Virus record (IMG/VR): IMGVR_UViG_3300006754_000007 | Length of the DNA stretch: 64,000 nt | Reading direction: 5' to 3' (one strand) | Source of the DNA: an uncultured virus (IMG/VR IMGVR_UViG_3300006754_000007) | Lineage: Duplodnaviria > Heunggongvirae > Uroviricota > Caudoviricetes | Shown: positions 1,063 through 46,250 of the stretch, one piece after another | How positions within the stretch are numbered: position 1 is the stretch's first letter | How the letters are laid out: each line of letters starts with the position of its first letter | Notes under the pieces: generated by a model | The model's database searches: none | What the model was told of the DNA's origin: nothing | The model's input: the letters and a program-made list of their open reading frames with translations, nothing else | Translations under genes and position numbers: made by a program

Positions 1063-1975
1063 CCCATTCTCGCGCAGCCTTGCGAACAATCCGAAGGGTC
1101 TTGCCAACAGTGGAAGGGGCCTCTCCGATACGAGCCGCAATCTCGGACTTCTGAAACCCTTGCATCGCCAACTCGGCACACTGCATGGTCATGTCCGGGT
1201 CGTACCCGGACTGGGTGGCCCGTTGAGAGACAGCCGACAGGATGGACTCACGGGCAATCTGCCCTGCTGTGTACTCATCGGTCTGGTCTGTGGCGATAGC
1301 GAGGTCTGCTTCAGAGACGTCCAGGAGTTCCCCGTTCACCCCAGTCACGCCAAACAACTCGTAGTGGTTACGGCGCGATTGCTTCCGGTGGTAGTTCGAG
1401 ATGATGCACCCAGCAACCATGTGAACATAGTGCCCGAAGCTGCTCTTCGAGACATCGAAGGGACACTTGCCGTTGTTCCTGATGAGGAGACCTTTGTAGA
1501 TTTCCTGAAGCATCTCTTCAGGCTCGTAGCCCAGTCGAAGCACCCTCCGAAGAAAGCCTGCATAGAAGAGCTTGCGGACCTCATGGCCTCTGGCATCAAG
1601 GTCAATCCCCAGCTTTGCGATGGAGATGGGCGGGGCGGCAACCTTCGGGGCGGGGCGGTCCACCGAAAGCGGGACCTCATCCACGAGCCGGAACATGTCC
1701 AGCGCATCCACCGACAGGTAAGACCTGGATGTGGAAAACCGACCACGCTTGAAGTAGCGGTCAAAAGTCAGGTGTGGGTCGTGTGCTTCCGGGGTCGGAG
1801 CGGGTGTGCCGTTGACCAAGGCAATAATGGTTTGCCTCGCAGAAGGATATGTCACCGATCCAGAAGGCCAAAAGACTTGAAAGCCCTTCTGGGTTCCAAG
1901 GACTCTGTGGTTACCGTGCTCTCTCCTGGCAAAATAAGTTTCTGGGGTCATCGGCGGCGTGTTCCTCGGCTGCAT
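1043..1975 (-). CDS. Sigma-70/ECF-like RNA polymerase sigma factor with N-terminal extension
   Basis: Region-2-like EEMLQEIY...FDVSKSSFGHYVHMVAGCIISNYHRK; region-4 HTH GFQKSEIAARIGEAPSTVGKTL. Confidence 0.75.
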   Translation of the reverse strand: MQPRNTPPMTPETYFARREHGNHRVLGTQKGFQVFWPSGSVTYPSARQTIIALVNGTPAPTPEAHDPHLTFDRYFKRGRFSTSRSYLSVDALDMFRLVDEVPLSVDRPAPKVAAPPISIAKLGIDLDARGHEVRKLFYAGFLRRVLRLGYEPEEMLQEIYKGLLIRNNGKCPFDVSKSSFGHYVHMVAGCIISNYHRKQSRRNHYELFGVTGVNGELLDVSEADLAIATDQTDEYTAGQIARESILSAVSQRATQSGYDPDMTMQCAELAMQGFQKSEIAARIGEAPSTVGKTLRIVRKAAREWDANQEF

Positions 1976-8925: not shown

Positions 8926-9135
8926 ATGTCCTGGCGTAAAGGTAGACACACCGGAGCTAAGTTCTGCGTTGCACGTCATCGTCGTATGACCCCGCGAGAA
9001 GCAGATTCACTCGAACGCACCATCGAGCGCCGCACCCGCCGCGAGGGTCAAGAGGCTTGTCGTGAGGGCGCAGAAGACGCTCTTCGGGGGTTGGTTTATC
9101 TTCCCGCCGACAGCGACGGAGCGCATCAGTCGTAG
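8926..9135 (+). CDS. Small basic protein
   Basis: AAGGAGG RBS; Arg-rich; overlaps the tyrS start. Confidence 0.55.
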   Translation: MSWRKGRHTGAKFCVARHRRMTPREADSLERTIERRTRREGQEACREGAEDALRGLVYLPADSDGAHQS

Positions 9136-10186
9136 CTCACACCCCTTGCGAGTGAAGTTCGGCATCGACCCCACAAGGGATCGGCTGCACCTGGGCCATT
9201 TCGTCCCTCTCCGTGTTGCCCGCAAGATGCAGGAGCAAGGCCACGACCTGCACCTCATCCTTGGCACCATCACGGCTGCACTCGGTGACCCGTCCGGTCA
9301 GGACAAGACCCGTCCCATTCTCTCGGAAGAGGAAGTTCGGTCGAACGCCGACTCTCTGCTGAAGCAGGTGGAGCGAGTGCTGCTTCCCGGATTCCAGGTT
9401 CACCGGAACCACGAGTTTGTAGAGGCCCTGAGCGTTCCGTTCTTCCTGACACGGCTCGCCAGCAAGGTGACCGTAACGAACATGCTGTCCCGTGATGGCT
9501 TCCGTCGCCGTAACGAAGCGGGCCAAGCCATCGCGCTCCACGAGTTGCTGGTGCCCCTGCTTCAAGGCTGGGATTCAGTTCAGGTCCAGGCTGAGGTGGA
9601 GATTGGCGGTACGGACCAGTTGTTCAACTTCCAGGTAGCCCGTCAGCTTCAAGAGTCCGAGGGTCAGGCTCCTCAGGATTGCGTGATGACCCCTGTGATT
9701 CGGGGCACTGACGGACGCAAAATGAGCAAGAGCTTCGACAACGCCATCTGGCTGGACGAGGCTCCCGAGCAGATGTTCGGCAAGATCATGTCCATCTCTG
9801 ATGAAGTGTCCGAGGAATGGGCCGGACTGCTGACCTCCATCACGGAGTTCCCGGCCCACCCCATGGAGCACAAAAAGATGCTGGCGTGGGACATTGTGCG
9901 CCAGCTTCGCGGTGCTGCCGCAGCCGACAAGGCCCAGGCCCACTTTGAAGCCTCCGTACAGCGCCAGGAGCGGCCCTCAGACATGCCGCAGGTAGCCCAG
10001 GCCCCTCTGGTATCGCTGGTCGCAGAAGTACGGGGAGAAAGCCGCTCAAAGGCTCGTAAGCTCATTCAGGGCGGTGGTGTCAGGATTGATGGCGAGAAGC
10101 ATCTTGATGTTGAGGGTGTCCCGGCCCTTGGCTCTGTAGTACGGGTCGGTAAGCGCGTCTTTGTGAGGGTGGGAGAACCCTCGTGA
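9062..10186 (+). CDS. tyrS: Tyrosyl-tRNA synthetase
   Basis: VKFGIDPT, HLGH, GDPSG, GGTDQLFN, KMSKS, C-terminal S4-like ARKLIQGGGVRIDG; start uncertain. Confidence 0.93.
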   Translation: MRAQKTLFGGWFIFPPTATERISRSSHPLRVKFGIDPTRDRLHLGHFVPLRVARKMQEQGHDLHLILGTITAALGDPSGQDKTRPILSEEEVRSNADSLLKQVERVLLPGFQVHRNHEFVEALSVPFFLTRLASKVTVTNMLSRDGFRRRNEAGQAIALHELLVPLLQGWDSVQVQAEVEIGGTDQLFNFQVARQLQESEGQAPQDCVMTPVIRGTDGRKMSKSFDNAIWLDEAPEQMFGKIMSISDEVSEEWAGLLTSITEFPAHPMEHKKMLAWDIVRQLRGAAAADKAQAHFEASVQRQERPSDMPQVAQAPLVSLVAEVRGESRSKARKLIQGGGVRIDGEKHLDVEGVPALGSVVRVGKRVFVRVGEPS

Positions 10187-10632: not shown

Positions 10633-10635
10633 GGG

Positions 10636-14065: not shown

Positions 14066-14647
14066 ATGGCTGGAAGTCTGGAAGTGGTGGTGGGGTGCAT
14101 GTACTCCGGGAAGACCGAGGAGTTGGTCCGGCGTCTGACACGAGCGCAGATTGCGGGGCTGCGAGTAGGAGCCTTCAAGCCGAAGATGGACAACCGATAC
14201 TCGGAGGACAACCTGTGTACACATCTCGGGGCGACTTTTCCGGCCACACCCGTAACCAACATCAACGAGGTCAAGCTGGCAGCGAGGCGCTTTGATGTCA
14301 TCGGCATTGATGAGGTTCAGTTTATCGAGGGGGCCAGTCTGTGCGAGATTCTCGATGAACTGGCGAGCGAGGGGCAACGGGTCATCGTAGCGGGGCTTGA
14401 TTTGGACTACCAAGGTGTGCCTTTTGCGGAGGTGCCCGACCTCATGGCCCTCGCTGATTCAGTGACCAAGGTGACGGCGGTGTGCTGCATGTGTGGAAAT
14501 CCCGCTACCAGGACACAGCGTCTTGTGGAATCAGACCAGCGAGTCCTGGTGGGGTCCAAAGGAATGTACGAGGCCCGATGCCGAGAAGACTGGTCTTCCA
14601 CCCCCGGCTTCGCCAAAGAGGGTCTGGAACAAGTCTCGGAGGGGTAG
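14066..14647 (+). CDS. tdk: Thymidine kinase
   Basis: GCMYSGKTEEL, IGIDEVQF, VAGLDLD, CCMCG, YEARCR. Confidence 0.95.
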   Translation: MAGSLEVVVGCMYSGKTEELVRRLTRAQIAGLRVGAFKPKMDNRYSEDNLCTHLGATFPATPVTNINEVKLAARRFDVIGIDEVQFIEGASLCEILDELASEGQRVIVAGLDLDYQGVPFAEVPDLMALADSVTKVTAVCCMCGNPATRTQRLVESDQRVLVGSKGMYEARCREDWSSTPGFAKEGLEQVSEG

Positions 14648-16091: not shown

Positions 16092-16835
16092 ATGGCTGAG
16101 CTAACACTGATTCGACACACCTTCACTTGCCGAACTTGCGGGTTCCAATGGCAAAGCAAGAGCCATCGAGCGTGCCGGGAATGCGGAGCACTCTGGGGGG
16201 ACACCCCTGCTCCAGCGGCTCCCGGCCCCTACATCGCCCTTAGGGACTCGCCCGGACGTGGGTTGGGGGTATACGCCACGGAGGACATCCCTTGTGCCAC
16301 CGTTATTGAACGGTGTCCGGCCTTTGTGTCCGTGACCAACATCAACGCCGGACCAAGCACCGAGGAGTTTCTGTCTGTCTTTACAGAGCCGTTTGCGCCT
16401 GGGGGGGACGGGGTGCCCACCGGGGAGTTCGTAGCATTTAGGCATTTAGTGGTGCCCTGGAGGCGGGATAACTTCAAGGCCGTCCTCTTAGGCTTTGGGA
16501 TGCTTTACAACCATTCAAGGGAAAACTGGAACACCGTTGCGTTGCCTTACGTCGATCCAAACACTCAGCGTCGGTACATGGACTTCGTTACTTGGCACCC
16601 GGTCCCCAAAGGGGAAGAGTTCTTAGTCAACTATGGGGAACAGTTGTGGTTCATCCCCAACAAGGAAGAGAAAAAGGAAAGGGAGCCGATGACTCCTGAA
16701 GAAGGAGTGGCGTTGCAGAAGGTTTTCGGGGAGCACGAGAAAGCCTGCATTGATGCAGGAGAGCTTGGCAACAAGGACCCAAACTTCTCAAAGCAAATGC
16801 TGGGGTGGGCAGCGGATGCGGAGAAGTCACCGTGA
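16092..16835 (+). CDS. SET-domain lysine methyltransferase with N-terminal Zn ribbon
   Basis: CRTC..CREC; SPGRGLGVYATEDI, GMLYNHS, KGEEFLVNYG. Confidence 0.85.
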   Translation: MAELTLIRHTFTCRTCGFQWQSKSHRACRECGALWGDTPAPAAPGPYIALRDSPGRGLGVYATEDIPCATVIERCPAFVSVTNINAGPSTEEFLSVFTEPFAPGGDGVPTGEFVAFRHLVVPWRRDNFKAVLLGFGMLYNHSRENWNTVALPYVDPNTQRRYMDFVTWHPVPKGEEFLVNYGEQLWFIPNKEEKKEREPMTPEEGVALQKVFGEHEKACIDAGELGNKDPNFSKQMLGWAADAEKSP

Positions 16836-19754: not shown

Positions 19755-21779
19755 ATGAAGGCGGCATCTGCAAGGAGGGTGGCTCTGCGCCACACCAAGA
19801 CTGCGTGCGTGGTAGCGATTGCAGACATTGAGGGAGAAACCATTCTTCTCAAGGTGCGGGACCGCAACTATGTCCCTCGCATCAAGGTGGTGCGAGAGTT
19901 GGCCGCTGGCACCGAGATTGCCCATGTTTACGACACCTGGACTGGTTGGTCTGAGGGCATCAATGAACACGGCATCAGTTTGGTCAGTTCCGCGCTTTTG
20001 GTCGAGGTAGACGAGGGGGAGAAGAAAACGACTGATGGGAATAGCGGGACGGGCCAGAAGATCCGAGAGATTCTCGGTGCCAAGACCATGGACGCAGCCA
20101 TCGAAATCATCATGGGAAACGTGGTGAAGGGATGCACCATCATCTCCGATGGCAACTCTTCGGTTCTTGTTGAGTTCGACGGCAACAAGGACAAGGGAGG
20201 GGCAGACCCCATCCTGAAGCACCTCAAGAAGAAAGTGGTGCTGAGTCGAACCAACCACGGGGTTTTCCTTGAAGGTTCTGGCTACACAAAAGACTACAAG
20301 GGCGGTGACGACCTCAAGTCCTCGAAGGAGCGTAAAGAGACCTCCGAGAAGGTGTTGGAAGAGGTGGAAGAGGTATCTGACGTTGCTGCCGCAATGGCCC
20401 GCGCCAGAAAGAAGGACCGCGAGCACCCCAACAATGCAATCCGGGCGACGGACAACATGTTCACCTCGACCCAGATTCTCATGCGCCCTGAAGCCAAGAC
20501 GATGGCGGTTTACCTGATTCCACGGGAAGTGGATTTCCTGGGAGTGGAGAACAGGCTCCCCAAGAAGAGGAAGCCTCAAATCAACATCGAGGTTTTTGAC
20601 TTCGAGGACTGGGATTCCGAGGACCCTGTTCCGGTCGCCTTAGAGGGAGACCTCGAAGTATTCAGGCTGTTCACCTACGGGTCAATGATGGGGAAGCCTT
20701 CCCACCCAAAGGATGTGGTTCGTTCTTACAAGGCAACCTTGAAGGGCCATCACAGAGCCTACAACCGCGCCAGCCAATCGCGTGGGGACACCCTTGTGAT
20801 GGGCACCGAGAAGGGTGGCGACATCGAGGGTGTGGTCCACGAATACCCTGTGGAGATAGCTCACAGGATGTTGGGGCAGGTGGATCGGCGGGAAGGATTC
20901 CGTACCGAGCGGGACCGCAGCTTGAACGCCTACACACGAGGCCACTTCGCGGTCGAGGTGAAGGGGGAAGACCCCGTGTGGGCGGTTGCATACCTGAGCA
21001 ACTCGAAGGGACCCAGCTACCTGAAGCCGCTCACCGTTGACCAAGCAGTGAAGCGCATCGAGAGCGAAGGCTCGCCGTCCCAAAAGTATCTCCGTCACAT
21101 CGAGGAAGCCCTCAAAGAGTACAAGTGCAAGGACTCTTACGTTTCCGACATCGCCAAGAAGGTGGGGAAGGCCCAGGCCAAGAAGGTGGCTCGACGGTAC
21201 GCCACAAGGGAGTTGGAGCTTCACCTGTACGACTTCGACGGCACCCTGTTCAAGTCGCCCCTCAAGCCCGACTGGTGGGGAAAGAAGTCCTGGTGGATTG
21301 AGCCAGAGTCACTGGGGCCACCGTGCGTGCCCTTGAAGCCAGGGTCAAGTTGGTGGATCGGTAAAACGGTTGCGGATGCCAAGAGGAGTATCTCTGACTC
21401 AAGCGTGTGGGCGATCCTATGTACGGGTCGCGCTGACACAGGCTCTCTCCGGTATCGGGTTGCAGAACTGCTGAAGCAGCAAGGTTTGAGTTTCGATGAG
21501 GTCTACTTGTCTAAGGGGGGCCAGGACGCGCCCTCCATGTACAAGGTCAATGTGATGTCGAAGATACTGGACAGGTTTCCCAACATCGCCACCGTTCAGA
21601 TTTGGGAGGACACCAACCTCTCGAAGTACGTCCGTTACATCGAGTCCACAGGACGGACTTGCATCCCCCATCCCGTCAAGGTGCCGCCCCATGAAGTGGA
21701 ATGCACCAAGGAAGACATGGAAAGAATGGTCGAAGAGGGTTGGTCGAGATGGCAGAAGGTGGGGGCTGAAAAACCTTGA
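19755..21779 (+). CDS. Tagged three-domain protein: Ntn hydrolase (C45/CBAH-like), gamma-glutamylcyclotransferase (ChaC-like), HAD phosphatase (RNA-repair Swiss-army-knife-like)
   Basis: RRVALRHTKTA-CVVAI..KVRDR..EGINEHG..RTNHG; LFTYGSMM..DRREG; KKVARRY..LYDFDGTLFKSP..LCTGR..IWED. Confidence 0.8.
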   Translation: MKAASARRVALRHTKTACVVAIADIEGETILLKVRDRNYVPRIKVVRELAAGTEIAHVYDTWTGWSEGINEHGISLVSSALLVEVDEGEKKTTDGNSGTGQKIREILGAKTMDAAIEIIMGNVVKGCTIISDGNSSVLVEFDGNKDKGGADPILKHLKKKVVLSRTNHGVFLEGSGYTKDYKGGDDLKSSKERKETSEKVLEEVEEVSDVAAAMARARKKDREHPNNAIRATDNMFTSTQILMRPEAKTMAVYLIPREVDFLGVENRLPKKRKPQINIEVFDFEDWDSEDPVPVALEGDLEVFRLFTYGSMMGKPSHPKDVVRSYKATLKGHHRAYNRASQSRGDTLVMGTEKGGDIEGVVHEYPVEIAHRMLGQVDRREGFRTERDRSLNAYTRGHFAVEVKGEDPVWAVAYLSNSKGPSYLKPLTVDQAVKRIESEGSPSQKYLRHIEEALKEYKCKDSYVSDIAKKVGKAQAKKVARRYATRELELHLYDFDGTLFKSPLKPDWWGKKSWWIEPESLGPPCVPLKPGSSWWIGKTVADAKRSISDSSVWAILCTGRADTGSLRYRVAELLKQQGLSFDEVYLSKGGQDAPSMYKVNVMSKILDRFPNIATVQIWEDTNLSKYVRYIESTGRTCIPHPVKVPPHEVECTKEDMERMVEEGWSRWQKVGAEKP

Positions 21780-24418: not shown

Positions 24419-24467
24419 CCCTGCTCAACGGGGGTTGGTACACACAGCCCGGAACGTAAGAGAGAGT

Positions 24468-30786: not shown

Positions 30787-31212
30787 ATGCCTGACCTGCC
30801 ACTCGACATACTCGCCTTGTTTGGCTGTGATGATGGCCTCGGGGTCGAAGTCCAACCCGTCATCCCTGTGCGAACAAAAGGCGACACGGAACAAAGGTTT
30901 GAGGCGTTCCACAGGATGAACCCGCATGTCTACAAGTCCATCGTCAGGATCGCCCTCGACCTCAAAAGCCGGGGCTTCGGTCGCTGTAGCATCTGGCTCA
31001 TCTTCAACCGCCTGCGGTGGCTCTACGCCCTCCAGACGCAAGGGGACGAGTTCAAGCTCAACAACAACTACACGGCGTACTACTCCCGTTTGGTGATGGA
31101 AACGGTGCCCGACCTCGACGGGTTCTTTGAGACGCGGTTGCACAAAGGGCAAGACCCTTACGTTCCCGATCTTGTGGCGTTGGGCTTCGGCGCGAGATTG
31201 ACCCATGAATGA
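30787..31212 (+). CDS. Conserved phage hypothetical protein
   Basis: FEAFHRMNPHVY..RLRW..FKLNNNYTAYYSRL. Confidence 0.7.
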   Translation: MPDLPLDILALFGCDDGLGVEVQPVIPVRTKGDTEQRFEAFHRMNPHVYKSIVRIALDLKSRGFGRCSIWLIFNRLRWLYALQTQGDEFKLNNNYTAYYSRLVMETVPDLDGFFETRLHKGQDPYVPDLVALGFGARLTHE

Positions 31213-31233
31213 CGCTGTGGATTTACTGTTCGA

Positions 31234-31764
31234 TTGGAGACTGCCTTGAGCGACCTCATTACGGTCTACGTCCAAGAAGAATACGGCTATCGGCATTGGG
31301 TCTGGGAAACAGGCTTCACCGCCGAAGAACTGACGACATGGTGGCAGAACCTTGACTCCGTGATGAGGTTCTTCTTCCACACCATGGAAACCCTCCCTGG
31401 AACCCTGCATGAGAGCGTGGCAGCACCCCGCGAGTTCTACCTGGAGCACTTCAACGAGGAAGGCGTCGAGGAGTGGTACGAGGGGTTGAGGAAGCCCACC
31501 TACTTCGAGGCTACGAGAAGTACTGAGGAAGGGGATGACTCGACCATCTGGTACGCACACTTTCACTGTGACGATGACAGCCACCTCGTGAACTCTGAGG
31601 GCGAGAGGTTCGTCCATGCAGGGTTCGTGACAGAAGACATGGAGGAGGACCACCCCACCGTAGTTGCTAACGCAGCCATCTCGGACCAAGCGATGATGGA
31701 GCACACGAAAAAGATGGCTTTGGAGCACGCAGAGGGGGGTTCCTCGGAGGACTCATCTGCGTAG
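31234..31764 (+). CDS. Acidic hypothetical protein
   Basis: ORF; start uncertain. Confidence 0.6.
   Translation: METALSDLITVYVQEEYGYRHWVWETGFTAEELTTWWQNLDSVMRFFFHTMETLPGTLHESVAAPREFYLEHFNEEGVEEWYEGLRKPTYFEATRSTEEGDDSTIWYAHFHCDDDSHLVNSEGERFVHAGFVTEDMEEDHPTVVANAAISDQAMMEHTKKMALEHAEGGSSEDSSA
31738..31763 (+). promoter_or_regulatory. Class I motif GGTTCC-N16-CGTA
   Basis: Exact match upstream of 31786. Confidence 0.7.
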
Positions 31765-31785
31765 TGAGAGGGGAGAGGAGACACC

Positions 31786-32187
31786 ATGAGCGGAACCATC
31801 ACCAAGAGCGCAGCCGAGTCCCTTTTGTGGGCCATCGCGCAGGTTGAGGATCGCGGGCGCAGCCTGAGAACCCTCATCCAGATGTCCGAGACTGGTCGAG
31901 TTCACCGTGCCTCCAACGTCGTGGTTGTGTGGGCACGAGAGAACCACAACGGACTCCGGGCACTCTGTAGAGGTCGTGACGACTACCTCGTCACCATCAC
32001 CATTGACAGGGACAAGGTGCGTCGGCACAGTTGCTCCTGCCTCGACCACGGGCGCGTTGGGGCGTGCAAGCATGTCCTCTCTGTGGCGAACCGTTGGATC
32101 GAGCAGAAGGGTCGTCCGGCATGGCTGGCGCTCAAAGATGCGGAAAAGGTTCTCAAGGGGGGTTCCCTTGGTGGCGTGACCGCGTAG
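31786..32187 (+). CDS. SWIM zinc-finger protein
   Basis: YLVTI..HSCSCLD..ACKHVL. Confidence 0.8.
   Translation: MSGTITKSAAESLLWAIAQVEDRGRSLRTLIQMSETGRVHRASNVVVVWARENHNGLRALCRGRDDYLVTITIDRDKVRRHSCSCLDHGRVGACKHVLSVANRWIEQKGRPAWLALKDAEKVLKGGSLGGVTA
32161..32186 (+). promoter_or_regulatory. Class I motif GGTTCC-N16-CGTA
   Basis: Exact match; followed by an ORF-free structured region. Confidence 0.7.
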
Positions 32188-32194
32188 AGGTTAC

Positions 32195-32969
32195 AAGTCA
32201 TTGATGACTGGCAGAGCGCCAAAAAACAGGTAGCCGTCACCATAGAGCGGCATAGTTCTTTTACAGTTTCAACGAATCTCAAAGCTCCTGCTTGCAGGGG
32301 TGGCGAGTGGACCCTGCTGACGGGTCCTAAAACCTTCGTACCCTTGCCGGGTCGTCGGCTCCTTCGGGAGGTAGCCAGAACCCTGTTCAGGAAAGGGGTG
32401 TTCACACACTCTGCCGCCTGACTATGAAGGGGGGTGAGTTATGGGGCGTGGTTGCTCCGAGAATCACCCAGTGGCCCAGAGCATGAGCCGACATTCCACT
32501 GTCGGAGTGCTGCGAAGGGCATCCTCGGACTTGCTGGTTCACTGAGGAAACGGTTGTAGGGCAATAACCAAGAACAAAGTCTTGGGAAGGGGGTTGTTCC
32601 CCAGAATCGGACTGCTGAATGCAGAAGCCTCTCTGGTCATTGGAGCAATCCAGTGGCCGTCCCGAAAGGGGGCAAGTGGCGATCTTCCCAAGAGATCAAA
32701 GGTTGTCGTGTGGAGGAAGGGAGAAGTGTACAGCTTACCCTCCGATACACAGAATGTAGGCAGCAGTAGCGCGTGCTGTTCCGTCGTAGGAGACTGCGAA
32801 GAACAGGGAGGAACGCCGTGAACCGCTTTACTGGCGGGTGTTCACACTCCTAACCCGAACGGGGACAGGCTCAAAAGGCTTGGAGGTCACGGCATGGGAG
32901 CAAGTGCATGTGTGCTTGTTTGTTCCCTTATGAGGGGGTCATCCGAAAGGGTGGCCCCCTCTCTTATTT
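32195..32969 (+). ncRNA. Candidate large structured ncRNA (about 780 nt)
   Basis: Promoter motif upstream, terminator-like hairpin 32932-32969, UUCG/GNRA hairpins, long-range helix, no credible ORF. Confidence 0.6.
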
Positions 32970-32976
32970 GGGGCAC

Positions 32977-32990
32977 GGTAAGGTTCCTAT
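32977..32990 (+). promoter_or_regulatory. Class II motif GGTR-N6-CTAT
   Basis: GGTAAGGTTCCTAT upstream of tagged gene 33014. Confidence 0.5.
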
Positions 32991-33013
32991 CCTTTCGGAC
33001 GAGAGAGGATTTA

Positions 33014-34012
33014 GTGGACCACCCTTCCCCCAGCCGCGTAGCCCTGTGTAAGCAGAGTGCCGACCTATGGACCCAGAGAAACGTGGAGTCCATAGCGAGG
33101 CGGCTCGCCAAGGTTAGGACGCGCCTCGGCCAATCTGAGCACCCAACAGCCAACTGGGTGGGGAACCTTGCTCGTACCCTTGGCGGGGTCGCAAACATGG
33201 CTCCTGGAGCACCCCACCACGACCCGGAAGCGTGGGCTGACTACGTTGACTTCTGGGTTAGTGCGAAGCAGGGGGCAAAGATCCTTGGGCCAAGCTGGCA
33301 GAAGCCTGGGGCCGACATCGCACTGGCAGAGATTGGGGAAGTCGATTCAAGACTGGTCCGCGATGTCACGGCCCTCCTGAAGACCAACCCGCGTAGCCGC
33401 GTAGCCAAGAAGTGGAAGAAGCTCCCTCCAGGGTGGACGGATAAGTCCGTCAAGAAGTTCTGGGGCACGCTCACAGGCACCACGCCGGAACACAAGGTCT
33501 GGGACTGCATCGAGAAGATGACCAAGCCCTTCGGGGACGGTGCAGGAGGGTTCTGCGGTGGCCTTGCCGACTGGCAGATGCCCGGTTGGCGGCAGAAGAA
33601 CAAGAAGGAATCCCCTGACGCACGCTCCGATGCCAAGTCCTACTGGAAGAAGAAGATCAAGAAGAAGAAGGCAGACATGACACCCGATCCAACACGAGTG
33701 GCGATGAGGTTCGCGGGACCCAAGGTGGCATCTGCGGGGTCCGAGATAGTTTGGCGCATCCTTGATCAACGGGCCTTTATGAAGGTCTGGCGTGATTTGG
33801 GGAAGGAGGACGAGCAGGCAGCCGAACTCTTGTATGAGGTGCTCACCACCCTACAAGACAAACTGGACATCGCTGACCGCGAGTACAACGCCCTCAACCG
33901 CATCACACAGTTGATCAAGGCGGGTTCCAGTTGGAACCCCGCCCTCCAACGAAACAACATCTTCAAGGCGGCTGACCTTTTGGGCCTCAAGCTCCCGTCG
34001 GGGAGCTTCTGA
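33014..34012 (+). CDS. Tagged multi-segment protein
   Basis: PSPSRVAL.KQSA at the start; internal PDPTRVAMRFAGPKVA. Confidence 0.7.
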   Translation: MDHPSPSRVALCKQSADLWTQRNVESIARRLAKVRTRLGQSEHPTANWVGNLARTLGGVANMAPGAPHHDPEAWADYVDFWVSAKQGAKILGPSWQKPGADIALAEIGEVDSRLVRDVTALLKTNPRSRVAKKWKKLPPGWTDKSVKKFWGTLTGTTPEHKVWDCIEKMTKPFGDGAGGFCGGLADWQMPGWRQKNKKESPDARSDAKSYWKKKIKKKKADMTPDPTRVAMRFAGPKVASAGSEIVWRILDQRAFMKVWRDLGKEDEQAAELLYEVLTTLQDKLDIADREYNALNRITQLIKAGSSWNPALQRNNIFKAADLLGLKLPSGSF

Positions 34013-43411: not shown

Positions 43412-44845
43412 TCAGGCAGTCTTCCTGCGTCCCTTCAGTTGCTTCATCTTGCCGTCGAAGGTTGCGGCCTTGCTCTGGGACGGGAACACGATCTCTTCCA
43501 GCACATCCAGCAGCTTCTTGGGAAGCTCGCTGAGGGTGTGGCACTGAACCGAGAGGTCGAAGTGGCTGCCGACTGCCTCACAGCCTCCGTCAATGCCGAT
43601 GCCCACGATGGCGATGCCCGCTTCTCGGGCGATTCGGATCTGACGACGCATGACCTCTGCGTGTCCACCGTTCGGGTAGCCGTCAGTGATGACCAGCATG
43701 ACCCTGTGGCGCTCTGTGCGGTCACTGAGGCTCTGGAGAGCGTACTGGATGCCGTCTGACATGGGCGTGCCGCCAGTGGCCCGTGTACGGGCGATACGGG
43801 GCATTACCTTGCGCCACTTCTCGTCCCACTGCTTGAACACGTCGATGCGGATGCCGCTGTAGCGGTGGAAGATCATCTGCCCGTTGCTGTCGTACATCTC
43901 CTGGTGCGAGGGATGGTTGCGACCACCACCGTCACGGAAGCCGAGAGCCATGACCGGAGCGCCTACGGCATCCAGCGGCTCGGCAATCGCTGCCATAGCG
44001 CGAGAGGCATCGCCCAGGTGAGAGGACATGGAGCCAGACTCATCAAGCACGATGGCAACTGCCAAGGAGCAGTCCGGCTTCCTGACCTTGGTGTAGTCGG
44101 GGCGTGTGGGGCGTGAGCCTGCCCGGACCTCAACCATGGACTGAACCAGACGGCGCTCAGAGAGGCCACGTCCGTTCTGCACACCGTGGATGGTCCTGGG
44201 GGCACGGTTCTGGAGGAACTTGGAGCGGAGGCGCGAGCGGATGGCTGCGACTTCCTTCTTCACCGAGTTGGAGATGCGTCGAGCAACGTCCTTGTCACCT
44301 GAGCGAGTCTGGACAAGCTCCACGGTGTCGAACTCACGGTCATAGGGTCGCCAGGGACGCTCACCTGCTTCGCAGTCTTGGTCCTTGTCCCGAAGCTCTT
44401 CCAGGGCATTCCCAAGAGCGCCGTTGTTGTCTGCGAGGCCACTGTCCTCGTTGTTCTCGATGGCCTGGAGCAGAGCTTGGGCAATCGCACGGTCATCACG
44501 GGCAGAGCCAGAGTCACAGTGACCGCCAGCGCCAGTGGAGTGTTCGGTAGAAGAGGTCTGGTCGGACTCGCCAATCTCACCGGAGAACTCGTTCCCAGGC
44601 TTGCCCTTACCCTTGCCGTCCTTGCCGTCCTTGCCGTCTTCGGGGCAGTCAGGCTGGTCAGCGTCGTTGTCGCCTCCACCCTTGCCGTCCTTGCCTTCAC
44701 CTTCTTCGCCGTCCTTGCCCTTACCGGACTCGTCCCCGTCCTTGCCTTCACCATCCGTACCTTCGCCACCCTCACCATCGTTGATGAGCATGAGGTCTTC
44801 ATTGGTGCCAAAGATGGCTTCTCCGAGTCTGAGCAGAATCGACAT
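43412..44845 (-). CDS. VWA-domain protein (CobT C-terminal-like) with acidic Gly-rich linker
   Basis: AIVLDESGSM MIDAS, GGTPM, VITDGYP; class I motif 44866-44891. Confidence 0.85.
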   Translation of the reverse strand: MSILLRLGEAIFGTNEDLMLINDGEGGEGTDGEGKDGDESGKGKDGEEGEGKDGKGGGDNDADQPDCPEDGKDGKDGKGKGKPGNEFSGEIGESDQTSSTEHSTGAGGHCDSGSARDDRAIAQALLQAIENNEDSGLADNNGALGNALEELRDKDQDCEAGERPWRPYDREFDTVELVQTRSGDKDVARRISNSVKKEVAAIRSRLRSKFLQNRAPRTIHGVQNGRGLSERRLVQSMVEVRAGSRPTRPDYTKVRKPDCSLAVAIVLDESGSMSSHLGDASRAMAAIAEPLDAVGAPVMALGFRDGGGRNHPSHQEMYDSNGQMIFHRYSGIRIDVFKQWDEKWRKVMPRIARTRATGGTPMSDGIQYALQSLSDRTERHRVMLVITDGYPNGGHAEVMRRQIRIAREAGIAIVGIGIDGGCEAVGSHFDLSVQCHTLSELPKKLLDVLEEIVFPSQSKAATFDGKMKQLKGRRKTA

Positions 44846-44894
44846 GATGTTCTCCTTGTTCTCCTTACGGGCACAGCGAGAAGGGGGAACCCCC

Positions 44895-46250
44895 TCAGGC
44901 TGCATCCTCCACTACGGCAAACTGGAGGTCTTGGCGTCCCTCGCTGTCGGGCTGAGAGGCAGAAGTCACCTCAACCATCTTGCCAGCGTAGGGGCCGCTC
45001 TTGGCCTTAGCGCGATCACCGACCTTGAAGATGGGGAGCTTCTTGTCCTGGTCCTTACCGGAGCCTCCCTGACCGCTCTCACCGTCACCGGACTCTCCGT
45101 CTCCAGGCTGGCCTTCACCGTCACCGGATTCACCGGACTCGCCTTCCTGGCCTTGGGCACCGGGATCGTTGGGGTCCACCTTGATCTTGATGGACTCGCC
45201 ACCACCGCCACCGCCGCCACCCTCTTGCAACTCTTGCTCGAAGCCGCAGGCGTTGCAGTGGATGACCTTCTTGGAGGGCTGGAGCACCACATCCTTGCTT
45301 CCGCAGGAGGGGCACGTTGCTTCCTTGGGTTCACCGGGACCATCACCGTCGTCACCCTCGTCGTCACCGGGCTGGTCAGCCGGACCACCCAGAGCCACCA
45401 GCACAGCCACCACTTCCATGGCGAGCCACAGGTGCTCCATGTCATCGTTCGGTCCAAGGGCGATTGCGCGGTCCAGGAGGGCCTTCAGAGGGCCTTCAGT
45501 GACGAGGGCATACCCTTGGGGGCTGCGACGTTCGTACTGCGTGTAGGCGGCGTTCTGGAGCGTTGTATCGTAGCCCAAGCCCAGGTCCCGGAACGTCCCG
45601 ATGACCGCAGCCATATCGTCGTTCGTGGGGAGTCCACGGTGGGAAGCAGCCTCACGACCCTTCTCTTCCTGCATGAGGATGAGGTCTTGGAGAGCCTCCA
45701 TCTTGCGAGGGGCACCAGGGTACTTGCGGCAACCGCAGCGTTCGATGCGAATGTCCTCGATGATGTTGCCCCAGGTGAGCAGTGCCTTGACGTAGGGTGC
45801 CCAGTTCGGCACGAGGTCCCAGATGGTCTGGATGCGAGGCCACACGCTGGTGATGATGAGGTTCTTCCGTCGGCTGTACTCAGTGTGCCATGCCTCGTGG
45901 TAGCCACCACCGACCAGCGCATCCCGCATGAAGACAGAGAGGTTGTCAGGCGTGGAGGCGATGACGATCTCAGGGTGTTCCCAATGAGAGAGGTCTTCGT
46001 TGCCAACAAGGATCAGGGCACGGACTGTATCTTCCGTCAGCGGAGTGCTGGGGTTGTTCTTGGCCCACTTGCAGAAGGCAGCGGTGAACTGACGGGCAGG
46101 CCACTTGTCCTTGTTGTAGAAGTTCGCGCCCATCGAGCGCACGGAGCGCATACCTGCACCCAGCACAGCGTCCACAGTGGACTGGTGGGTGGCACGGTAC
46201 TTGGCTCCTGAGAGCCAGCGTTCGTCAGCTTTGTTGGGGCGAGGTGCCAT
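44895..46250 (-). CDS. CobT N-terminal-like HExxH protein with Zn ribbon and acidic linker
   Basis: GYHEAWHTEYS, NIIEDIRIE, CPSCG..CNACG; class I motif 46273-46298. Confidence 0.72.
   Translation of the reverse strand: MAPRPNKADERWLSGAKYRATHQSTVDAVLGAGMRSVRSMGANFYNKDKWPARQFTAAFCKWAKNNPSTPLTEDTVRALILVGNEDLSHWEHPEIVIASTPDNLSVFMRDALVGGGYHEAWHTEYSRRKNLIITSVWPRIQTIWDLVPNWAPYVKALLTWGNIIEDIRIERCGCRKYPGAPRKMEALQDLILMQEEKGREAASHRGLPTNDDMAAVIGTFRDLGLGYDTTLQNAAYTQYERRSPQGYALVTEGPLKALLDRAIALGPNDDMEHLWLAMEVVAVLVALGGPADQPGDDEGDDGDGPGEPKEATCPSCGSKDVVLQPSKKVIHCNACGFEQELQEGGGGGGGGESIKIKVDPNDPGAQGQEGESGESGDGEGQPGDGESGDGESGQGGSGKDQDKKLPIFKVGDRAKAKSGPYAGKMVEVTSASQPDSEGRQDLQFAVVEDAA

Follow-up and report, generated by a model that had tools for sequence, protein, structure and literature searches.

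An apparently undescribed family of large, pseudoknotted non-coding RNAs in uncultured marine jumbo phages

Using a stretch of 64,000 nucleotides from an uncultured virus (IMG/VR record IMGVR_UViG_3300006754_000007; hereafter the window, meaning the whole stretch that was analyzed), we identified a region, positions 32190 to 32969 on the plus strand, that is in all probability a free-standing gene for a large structured non-coding RNA, belonging to an apparently undescribed family carried by uncultured marine jumbo phages. Our analysis demonstrated that this region has a conserved, pseudoknotted fold on the plus strand, that it is recovered from RNA libraries, and that it occurs independently of any neighboring protein gene; at least one pseudoknot in the fold has strong support, and there are three more contacts of the long-range or kissing kind. 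As far as our searches reach, this is a real and expressed RNA of an apparently undescribed class of large ornate phage RNAs, and it shows what is generally expected of a gene for a structured non-coding RNA, i.e., covariation, no conserved open reading frame (ORF), a promoter motif and a terminator, and contigs in RNA libraries. An earlier note on this DNA had proposed a highly structured non-coding RNA of about 780 nucleotides here. Covariation, an asymmetry between G·U and A·C pairs, and metatranscriptome contigs confirm the structured RNA and place it on the plus strand, with a conserved core (32253–32894) that is shorter than the proposed unit, and all the sequence features named at the time are present where they were placed.

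Homologs and the conserved fold

The family comprises 21 homologous sequences (19 of them distinct) from marine viral and metagenome contigs, aligned in 21 rows (alignment A5). The public contig closest to the window (G001; 180,576 bp, rated 40% complete) carries a homolog, L002, that is 90.6% identical to the window over 31236–32999; per 100 nucleotides, the non-coding stretch is 91–100% identical and the SWIM gene upstream of it 60–85%. Between these two sequences there are 20 differences in 32188–32975, of which 10 form five compensatory pairs, 5 are one-sided and compatible with wobble pairing, 5 are unpaired, and none breaks a pair. A 22-base core pattern matched two metagenome contigs, one almost identical to the window save that 33044–33394 is missing (L006), and one that is 96% identical and diverges directly after the terminator at 32963 (L007). 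Homologs of a 176-amino-acid (aa) ORF upstream of the RNA led to eight more viral records, and a DNA search of these whole records located the RNA in two, G003 (83% identity over 647 nt) and G004 (67%). A two-motif search pattern derived from five sequences, in which the invariant GTCCCGAAAGGGG and AAGAACAGGGAG stand 127 nt apart, matched 17 IMG/VR loci, each of which is a full-length homolog (nhmmer scores 300–646, E ≤ 1.7e-91); one of them (L035) is the G004 copy (L018), so 16 of these loci are new. Searches of viral contigs with exact 38-mer and 24-mer core patterns found the L002 contig only, and the 26-base loose-end consensus of a divergent metatranscriptome contig had no match there. 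Two matches were rejected as chance, namely L026, where a 20-base motif lies in a similarity of 40 nt only and inside a coding sequence, and a match in G009 at E 0.9.

The nhmmer profile of the family matches the window once (32252–32935), and each of five whole records that were searched contains one copy of the RNA. The source contigs span 38–60% GC, and the window RNA is 61–67% identical to the AT-rich members; 199 of the 592 well-occupied core columns are nevertheless invariant, and these are distributed along the whole core, with many of them in junctions and loops. In agreement with the earlier view that the region holds no credible ORF, the longest plus-strand ORF in the non-coding stretch (32188–33067) encodes 79 aa, and every reading frame is broken across the 21 members, the longest stop-free stretches being 61 aa (L035) and 63 aa (L037). 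Two carriers are complete genomes with terminal repeats (G017, 293,409 bp; G025, 203,859 bp), both of which encode the T4-type major capsid protein Gp23; the carriers as a whole are uncultured jumbo phages of marine origin, and some are T4-like. Two pairs of sequences, L030/L042 and L028/L040, are identical and were counted once in the covariation statistics. The members of each pair come from different IMG/VR records with identical RNA genes and flanks over about 3 kb, i.e., the same phage has been assembled repeatedly.

The single-sequence fold has a minimum free energy of −334.8 kcal/mol (z = −6.2, 20 shuffles), and RNAalifold applied to alignment A5 gave 154 pairs, 95 of them with compensatory changes. 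Our final structure consists of the RNAalifold result minus one helix (alignment columns 352–356/391–395), which was dropped as invariant and broken in L035, plus helices found by a covariation scan of the remaining columns, and it holds 167 pairs; of its 33 helices, four are pseudoknot or kissing contacts. Standard pairing is present in 97.2% of 3152 cells, against 38.8–46.8% when the 3′ partners are slid by one to three columns; likewise, compensatory changes occur in 106 of the 167 pairs (24–33 when slid), and the covariation score is 0.528 (0.08–0.11 when slid). None of 500 column shuffles attained any of these observed measures. The nested helices taken by themselves are 96.9% paired, with compensatory changes in 95 of 149 pairs. 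G·U pairs fill 390 cells and A·C combinations 20, and the fold therefore belongs to the plus strand as RNA.

The positions of the helices discussed here are given in Table 1. The pseudoknot PK1 emerged from the covariation scan and is the best-supported tertiary contact, and in the kissing contact of helix 11 two pairs show a compensatory change, in one sequence each. Helix 17 is the long-range helix that the earlier note had seen at 32580/32684: its seven pairs are conserved, and its two compensatory changes both come from L035 alone. Helix 17 also competes with a local hairpin, CCAAG (32568–32572) with CTTGG, whose tip has insertions of variable length in nine members, and its TCCCAAG strand is the loop of a further hairpin (32681–32697); the three-way complementarity of CCAAG, CTTGGGA, and TCCCAAG may reflect alternative folds. 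Helices 19 and 20 show compensatory changes in 4 of 7 and 3 of 4 pairs, respectively. Among the hairpins that had been picked out in the single sequence, GGTCATTGGA-GCAA-TCCAGTGGCC (helix 21) covaries in 7 of its 9 pairs, with four double changes already between the window and L002, and CCC-GAAA-GGG (helix 22), the inner part of the TCCC-GAAA-GGGG hairpin, is invariant in all 19 distinct sequences; CTCC-TTCG-GGAG is the tip of a hairpin whose length varies across the family. The loop of helix 27 includes a six-base palindrome, TGTACA (32727–32732).

Other pairings fared less well. The repeated GGTGTTCACAC of the earlier note is present in both copies, with such a repeat being at chance level (38 of 100 shuffles gave two or more matches at one mismatch or fewer), and it is neither a paired nor a family-wide feature. 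A pairing between its two copies, predicted from one or two sequences, was rejected, in that L017 alters the 5′ copy alone and a local 5′ hairpin covaries instead. Helices 1 and 28 have competitors in two alternative pairings, CCTCTCTG/CAGGGAGG and GTTCTT/AAGAAC.

Recovery from RNA libraries and limits of the gene

We searched marine sequencing runs for words shared with the stretch 31200–33600, and aligned to this stretch the contigs of four RNA runs from four studies. Many marine metagenome runs contain the stretch, with at least half of its words present in 14, and the runs as a whole represent 13 studies; six metatranscriptome runs contain 0.10–0.16 of its words. In all four RNA runs, the metatranscriptome contigs lie on 32253–32900 only, with depth 0 in all 13 bins of 31200–32252 and all 9 bins of 32901–33600. 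Sample S10 yielded 0.62 of the words of the whole stretch in its DNA run (X10) and 0.11 in its RNA run (X19). Because the flanks are uncovered in four studies, this pattern argues for the RNA being far more abundant than the neighboring mRNAs. The gaps at 32172–32252 and 32901–32981 count neither for nor against transcription there. Many of the aligned RNA contigs are diverged relatives (below 90% identity), and their variants repeat compensatory patterns, e.g., CCGC/GCGG to CAGC/GCTG in the 3′ domain, and G with C at 32824/32836. One contig from run X15 enters Illumina adapter sequence past 32885, which faintly suggests that a fragment ended close to the 3′ limit of the core.

Immediately upstream of the RNA stands a bipartite motif that had been read as a class I promoter motif, GGGGTTCC-N16-CGTA (32159–32186). 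The window contains 18 copies of this fixed-gap pattern (0.01 expected from 100 shuffles), all oriented with the genes that follow them. Most of the other copies have a Shine-Dalgarno sequence and an ATG no more than about 20 nt downstream, whereas the copy at 32159–32186 leads into the non-coding stretch instead. The motif is likely to be the promoter of a phage-specific transcription class. Its extended form is GGGGTTCC-N16-CGTA(G/T/A)(A/G)G, usually followed by AGGAG and ATG, with sites, for example, at 10634, 28426, and 46819, and on the minus strand at 24420, 46300, and 44893. A related box, GGGGG(T)TCAAC...GTA(A/T)AAG, stands before the homologous RNA in L017.

The GAAA-capped hairpin that had been called terminator-like does have the form of an intrinsic terminator (Table 1). 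In L007 its stem carries a compensatory A-U to G-C change with the T-run retained, and an A-U to G-U change in the tail hairpin preceding it leaves the pairing there intact; L017 has the same terminator hairpin and a second one with seven T. Homology to the window ends at 32963 in L007 and near 33000 in L002. Several AT-rich relatives have a TATAAT-like box or a tRNA immediately 5′ of AGTTCTTT, and in several a GC-rich hairpin and T-run lie about 60 nt past the core. Because of the limits of conservation of leader, core, and tail, together with the promoter, tRNA, and terminator contexts in the relatives, we infer that 32190–32969 is the primary transcript and that the core is the probable mature RNA.

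Table 1. Positions of the features of the RNA gene in the window
Feature	Position	Strand	Remarks
Promoter-like motif GGGGTTCC-N15-GCGTAGAG	32159–32189	+	Overlaps the stop codon of the SWIM ORF (31786–32187)
5′ leader	32190–32252	+	Clade-specific; small hairpin 32196–32209; 100% identical in L002, absent from AT-rich relatives
Conserved core, (A)GTTCTTT (5′) to GGTCACGGC (3′)	32253–32894	+	About 640 nt; 33 helices including 4 pseudoknot/kissing contacts
Insertion with hairpin	32270–32308	+	Only in the high-GC clade (window, L002, L017, partly L032); gapped in 16 of the 21 A5 rows
Long-range pseudoknot, helix 8	32412–32415 (TGCC) with 32560–32563 (GGCA)	+	4 pairs, 96.1% paired, 2 compensatory
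Kissing contact of neighboring hairpin loops, helix 11	32448–32451 (GTGG) with 32496–32499 (CCAC)	+	4 pairs, 100% paired
PK1 pseudoknot, helix 16	Hairpin loop 32534–32540 (CTGGTTC) with 32604–32610 (GAATCGG)	+	7 pairs, 100% paired, 4 compensatory
Long-range helix 17	32581–32587 (CTTGGGA) with 32686–32692 (TCCCAAG)	+	7 pairs, 99.2% paired
Long-range helices 19 and 20, closing the central domain	32611–32617 with 32761–32767; 32620–32623 with 32755–32758	+	100% paired
GCAA-capped hairpin (helix 21), then CCC-GAAA-GGG hairpin (helix 22)	32634–32670	+	32634–32659; 32661–32670
Hairpin with invariant loop GTACA (helix 27)	32725–32735	+	G, T, A, C, and A invariant in all 21 rows
3′ domain, helices 29–33	32815–32893	+	Closing helix GCCGTGA/TCACGGC
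Contents of the 3′ domain	32823–32837; 32847–32850 with 32882–32885	+	Hairpin; helix CTCC/GGAG; two small hairpins
3′ tail hairpin GGGAGCAAG/TTTGTTCCC	32895–32931	+	Predicted; clade-specific, not kept in AT-rich members
Intrinsic terminator	32932–32969	+	13-bp stem and GAAA loop (32932–32961), then TCTTATTT

tRNA islands and neighboring genes

Many relatives carry the RNA next to tRNA genes. Within flanks of 1.1–1.5 kb, ARAGORN located a tRNA at 9 of 20 loci, and in five of the relatives (L036, L037, L038, L041, and L043) a tRNA lies directly upstream on the same strand. In L043 a tRNA-Lys ends one base 5′ of the aligned RNA, in L037, L038, and L041 a tRNA-Ser lies about 40 nt upstream, and in L036 there is an array of four tRNAs. 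Among the 19 whole records, 14 contain tRNAs; in 9 of the 14 no more than 1.2 kb separates the RNA from a tRNA, and the two complete genomes (G017 and G025) have it within the tRNA island. ARAGORN found no tRNA inside the RNA itself, and in the window and the loci it reported tRNAs but no tmRNA. In L032 the RNA (1109–1830, plus strand) touches or overlaps, at its 3′ end, a minus-strand tRNA-Asn (1823–1898), and the two are convergent. No protein is a conserved neighbor of the RNA, with the largest shared cluster spanning 4 of the 19 loci compared.

The window looks like part of a very large phage. Its genes include those for a tyrosyl-tRNA synthetase, a thymidine kinase, DNA methylases, a DUF5131 protein, CobT-like VWA and CobS-like proteins, and one tRNA-Asn, and the majority of its ORFs match no family. 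The tyrosyl-tRNA synthetase (9062–10186), the thymidine kinase (14066–14647), a SET-domain protein (16092–16835), and a 674-aa fusion of a ChaC/GGACT-like domain with a HAD domain of the RNA-repair type (19755–21779) form an auxiliary set that is unusual in a phage. The non-coding stretch that contains the RNA lies between a SWIM zinc-finger ORF (31786–32187; Pfam SWIM, E 3.8e-4), for which a search of viral contigs gave no match, and a same-strand ORF of 314 aa (33068–34012), and both flanking ORFs are complete. Against genome contigs, the 314-aa ORF gave a single weak match in Flavimaricola (36% identity over 57 residues), which is uninformative; the two-motif pattern of the RNA is absent from the Flavimaricola genome and from 401 bacterial genomes of its phylum, which are a sample of that group only.

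Two observations concern the immediate surroundings of the RNA. Just 3′ of it, the window contains a 351-nt stretch (33044–33394) that is missing from L006, which is otherwise 99.7–99.9% identical, and from L002. This stretch is bounded by the direct repeat GCCGCGTAGCC (33033–33043 and 33394–33404, with an extra overlapping copy at 33387–33397), and it contains the start and the first 110 or so codons of the 314-aa ORF. On the 5′ side, the 176-aa ORF (31234–31764) shows 96–100% DNA identity to L002 over 31300–31599, and its relatives amount to only 6 protein clusters among 5.8 billion, all of them without Pfam domains. Homologs of this ORF occur in other jumbo-phage contigs, where they do not adjoin the RNA, and nhmmer found no copy of the RNA next to those in L009–L016.

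Elsewhere in the window, the 9-mer CTGCTTCAG / CTGAAGCAG, which includes CTGAAG, has 22 sites in the 64 kb against about 0.5 expected by rough arithmetic (for example, at 1306, 4827, 15535, 27054, and 60087). Tandem 9-base units (GCCGTCCTT / GGCAAGGAC) at 44611–44746, within the CobT-like VWA gene (minus-strand ORF 43412–44905), encode a short repetitive peptide segment.

Relation to known RNAs and possible role

Comparison with Rfam 15 at gathering score, using the whole window, returned nothing on the RNA. No match to GOLLD, ROOL, OLE, HEARO, RNase P, transfer-messenger RNA (tmRNA), or group I or II introns was obtained at E ≤ 10 with the window region 31900–33300 and L043 1000–2150, or at E ≤ 0.1 under permissive filters with 10 family loci. 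What these scans did return were tRNAs and sub-threshold noise, the best being BjrC68 on the terminator (27.3 bits; cut-off 39), and, in L043, a permuted-tmRNA row (15 bits, E 1.5) that is located on the tRNA. Our literature searches found no description of this RNA family. Fremin et al. 2023 (PMC10690425), in the accessible part of the article, report candidate RNAs from IMG/VR that average 67 bases. Pieces of the present RNA may be listed in the supplementary tables of that study.

The tRNA region of phage T4 encodes small stable RNAs, species 1 and 2 (rnaC/rnaD), of about 120–140 nt, which are matured with the tRNAs. Our RNA resembles these in being non-coding and in lying in the tRNA cluster of T4-type phages, in that the two complete carriers are T4-like, but it is roughly five times their size and much more elaborate; the two were compared by description. 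OLE, an ornate bacterial RNA of about 600 nt, is encoded on the chromosome of extremophilic Firmicutes and acts together with OLE-associated proteins, and it shares with our RNA its large ornate form and many conserved junction nucleotides, whereas our RNA is phage-borne and has no Rfam match and no conserved partner gene. The known hosts of ROOL are rumen and Firmicutes-type bacteria, and GOLLD reportedly goes back to Weinberg and colleagues in 2009.

As far as the accessible text of Kretsch et al. 2025 (PMC12286853) goes, GOLLD and ROOL are abundant, large, and ornate RNAs that phages and prophages encode, often close to tRNA islands, and that form RNA-only nanocages. In the same portion of that text, some marine GOLLD RNAs lie downstream of tRNA-Met, and the 3′ half of GOLLD is universally conserved, its 5′ half being variable and a disordered linker being able to hold tRNAs. 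ROOL, which likewise occurs in phages and prophages close to tRNA islands, is very abundant and contains multiple pseudoknots, with no protein partner identified. Our RNA is like GOLLD in that it is large, has an elaborate fold, is phage-borne and marine, and lies near tRNA islands, sometimes just past a tRNA; unlike GOLLD, it has a core of about 640 nt (often more than 800 nt in GOLLD), conservation that spans the whole core, no internal tRNA, and no covariance-model match. Similarly, it is like ROOL in being phage-encoded and near tRNA islands, in having multiple pseudoknots, a similar size, and apparently a high abundance, and in having no identified protein partner; unlike ROOL, it has no covariance-model match and is found in uncultured marine viral contigs only, with blastn in "distant" mode giving no match in 50,697 cultured-phage records for the window RNA and two AT-rich members.

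A course of events can be proposed. In the phage of the window, the RNA would be transcribed from its own phage-type promoter and would end at the terminator, whereas in the AT-rich relatives it would probably be co-transcribed with tRNAs and freed by tRNA-processing nucleases, and the mature RNA would probably be the core. By analogy with GOLLD and ROOL, it might be a stable and abundant architecture made during infection, either RNA-only and possibly self-associating or the scaffold of a ribonucleoprotein, and it might act in trans, with host or phage proteins or alone, in a process linked to tRNAs or translation. We tentatively suggest, as one possibility among several, that the task of such an architecture is tied to the phage take-over of tRNAs and translation and not to the regulation of a neighboring gene. 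A bolder version, which we regard as rather unlikely, is that the RNA represents a new giant ornate class on a par with GOLLD and ROOL, ranks among the top transcripts by abundance in marine T4-like and other jumbo phages, and acts on the tRNA and translation machinery as a protein-free particle or a ribozyme, for instance by sheltering, maturing, or replacing tRNAs hit by host defenses. The accessible text of Kretsch et al. (PMC12286853) also describes palindromic loops that mediate symmetric self-association in OLE and GOLLD, and we speculate that the TGTACA loop could do the same here.

The main alternative to a passive architecture is a ribozyme, e.g., one that processes or modifies tRNAs or other RNAs. 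With one third of the core columns invariant at 61–67% RNA identity, many of them in junctions and loops, and with several pseudoknots, the RNA shows a pattern typical of catalytic or ribosome-like RNAs, and its gene adjoins tRNA genes; on the other hand, it matches no model of RNase P, group I or II introns, or small ribozymes, and GOLLD and ROOL are as conserved without known catalysis, so that we assign catalysis a low probability. That the RNA is a divergent member of GOLLD or ROOL, beyond the reach of the Rfam models, appears very unlikely. The phage origin, the size of 640–780 nt, the tRNA islands of the relatives, and the recovery in RNA libraries would all suit such a member, as would the marine GOLLD members that follow tRNA-Met in the accessible text cited above, but neither the gathering score for the window, nor E ≤ 10 for the window RNA and L043, nor E ≤ 0.1 for 10 loci produced a match, and conservation along the whole core contrasts with the conserved 3′ and variable 5′ halves described there for GOLLD. 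The earlier note had offered either membership of such a class or a new one, and it is the second of these that our results favor.

The two remaining explanations are weaker still. A long cis-acting leader, riboswitch, or mRNA part serving the downstream gene 33068–34012, or a region coding for small proteins, is most improbable: the RNA does lie upstream of the 314-aa ORF on the same strand and contains short ORFs, but a strong terminator separates the two, the downstream sequence is different in L007 and partly deleted in L002 and L006, and across the family the neighbors vary, tRNAs flank the RNA in relatives, and no ORF is conserved. An element acting at the DNA level (a replication origin or packaging site) or a mobile, intron-like element, which a conserved non-coding island in mosaic phage genomes with a sharp break of homology at its 3′ end might suggest, is extremely unlikely given that the excess of G·U over A·C fits a one-strand RNA and not duplex DNA signals, that the RNA-library contigs are restricted to the element, and that there is no intron-model match, no split host gene, and no homing endonuclease nearby.

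Several points weigh against a free-standing, expressed RNA gene with a task linked to tRNAs. Some of the alignment rows are closely related, and the cell counts therefore overstate the number of independent events; helices 1 and 22 and the outer part of helix 28 never vary, and alternative pairings exist. The RNA evidence consists of assembled contigs, not reads, and gives neither transcript ends, strand, nor level, and carried-over DNA of several related phages, all with this conserved core, may conceivably contribute. The leader (32190–32252) and the terminator have no cover by RNA contigs, so the unit from promoter to terminator is inferred. Finally, in the high-GC clade the RNA is far from tRNAs, the nearest lying at a distance of 29 kb in the window and of about 27 kb in G001, and no tRNA was found in the incomplete G003 record; the link to tRNAs is not universal, because the clade of the window itself lacks nearby tRNAs.

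To our knowledge, very few natural RNA classes of this size and complexity exist, and recent work has revealed that GOLLD, ROOL, and OLE build assemblies of RNA alone that are without precedent. The compact 640-nt core, with its covariation-supported structure and pseudoknots, is a ready target for cryo-electron microscopy, and the RNA marks a group of uncultured marine jumbo phages while being seen in the metatranscriptomes of several studies. A further unrelated large RNA with the same habit, i.e., phage-borne, in tRNA islands, and present in RNA libraries, provides an independent handle on the role of such RNAs, and the 199 positions that are invariant across phages of 38–60% GC support the use of this family as that handle. 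If true, a role in tRNA function or translation would account for the independent arrival of three unrelated large RNAs in the tRNA islands of phages.

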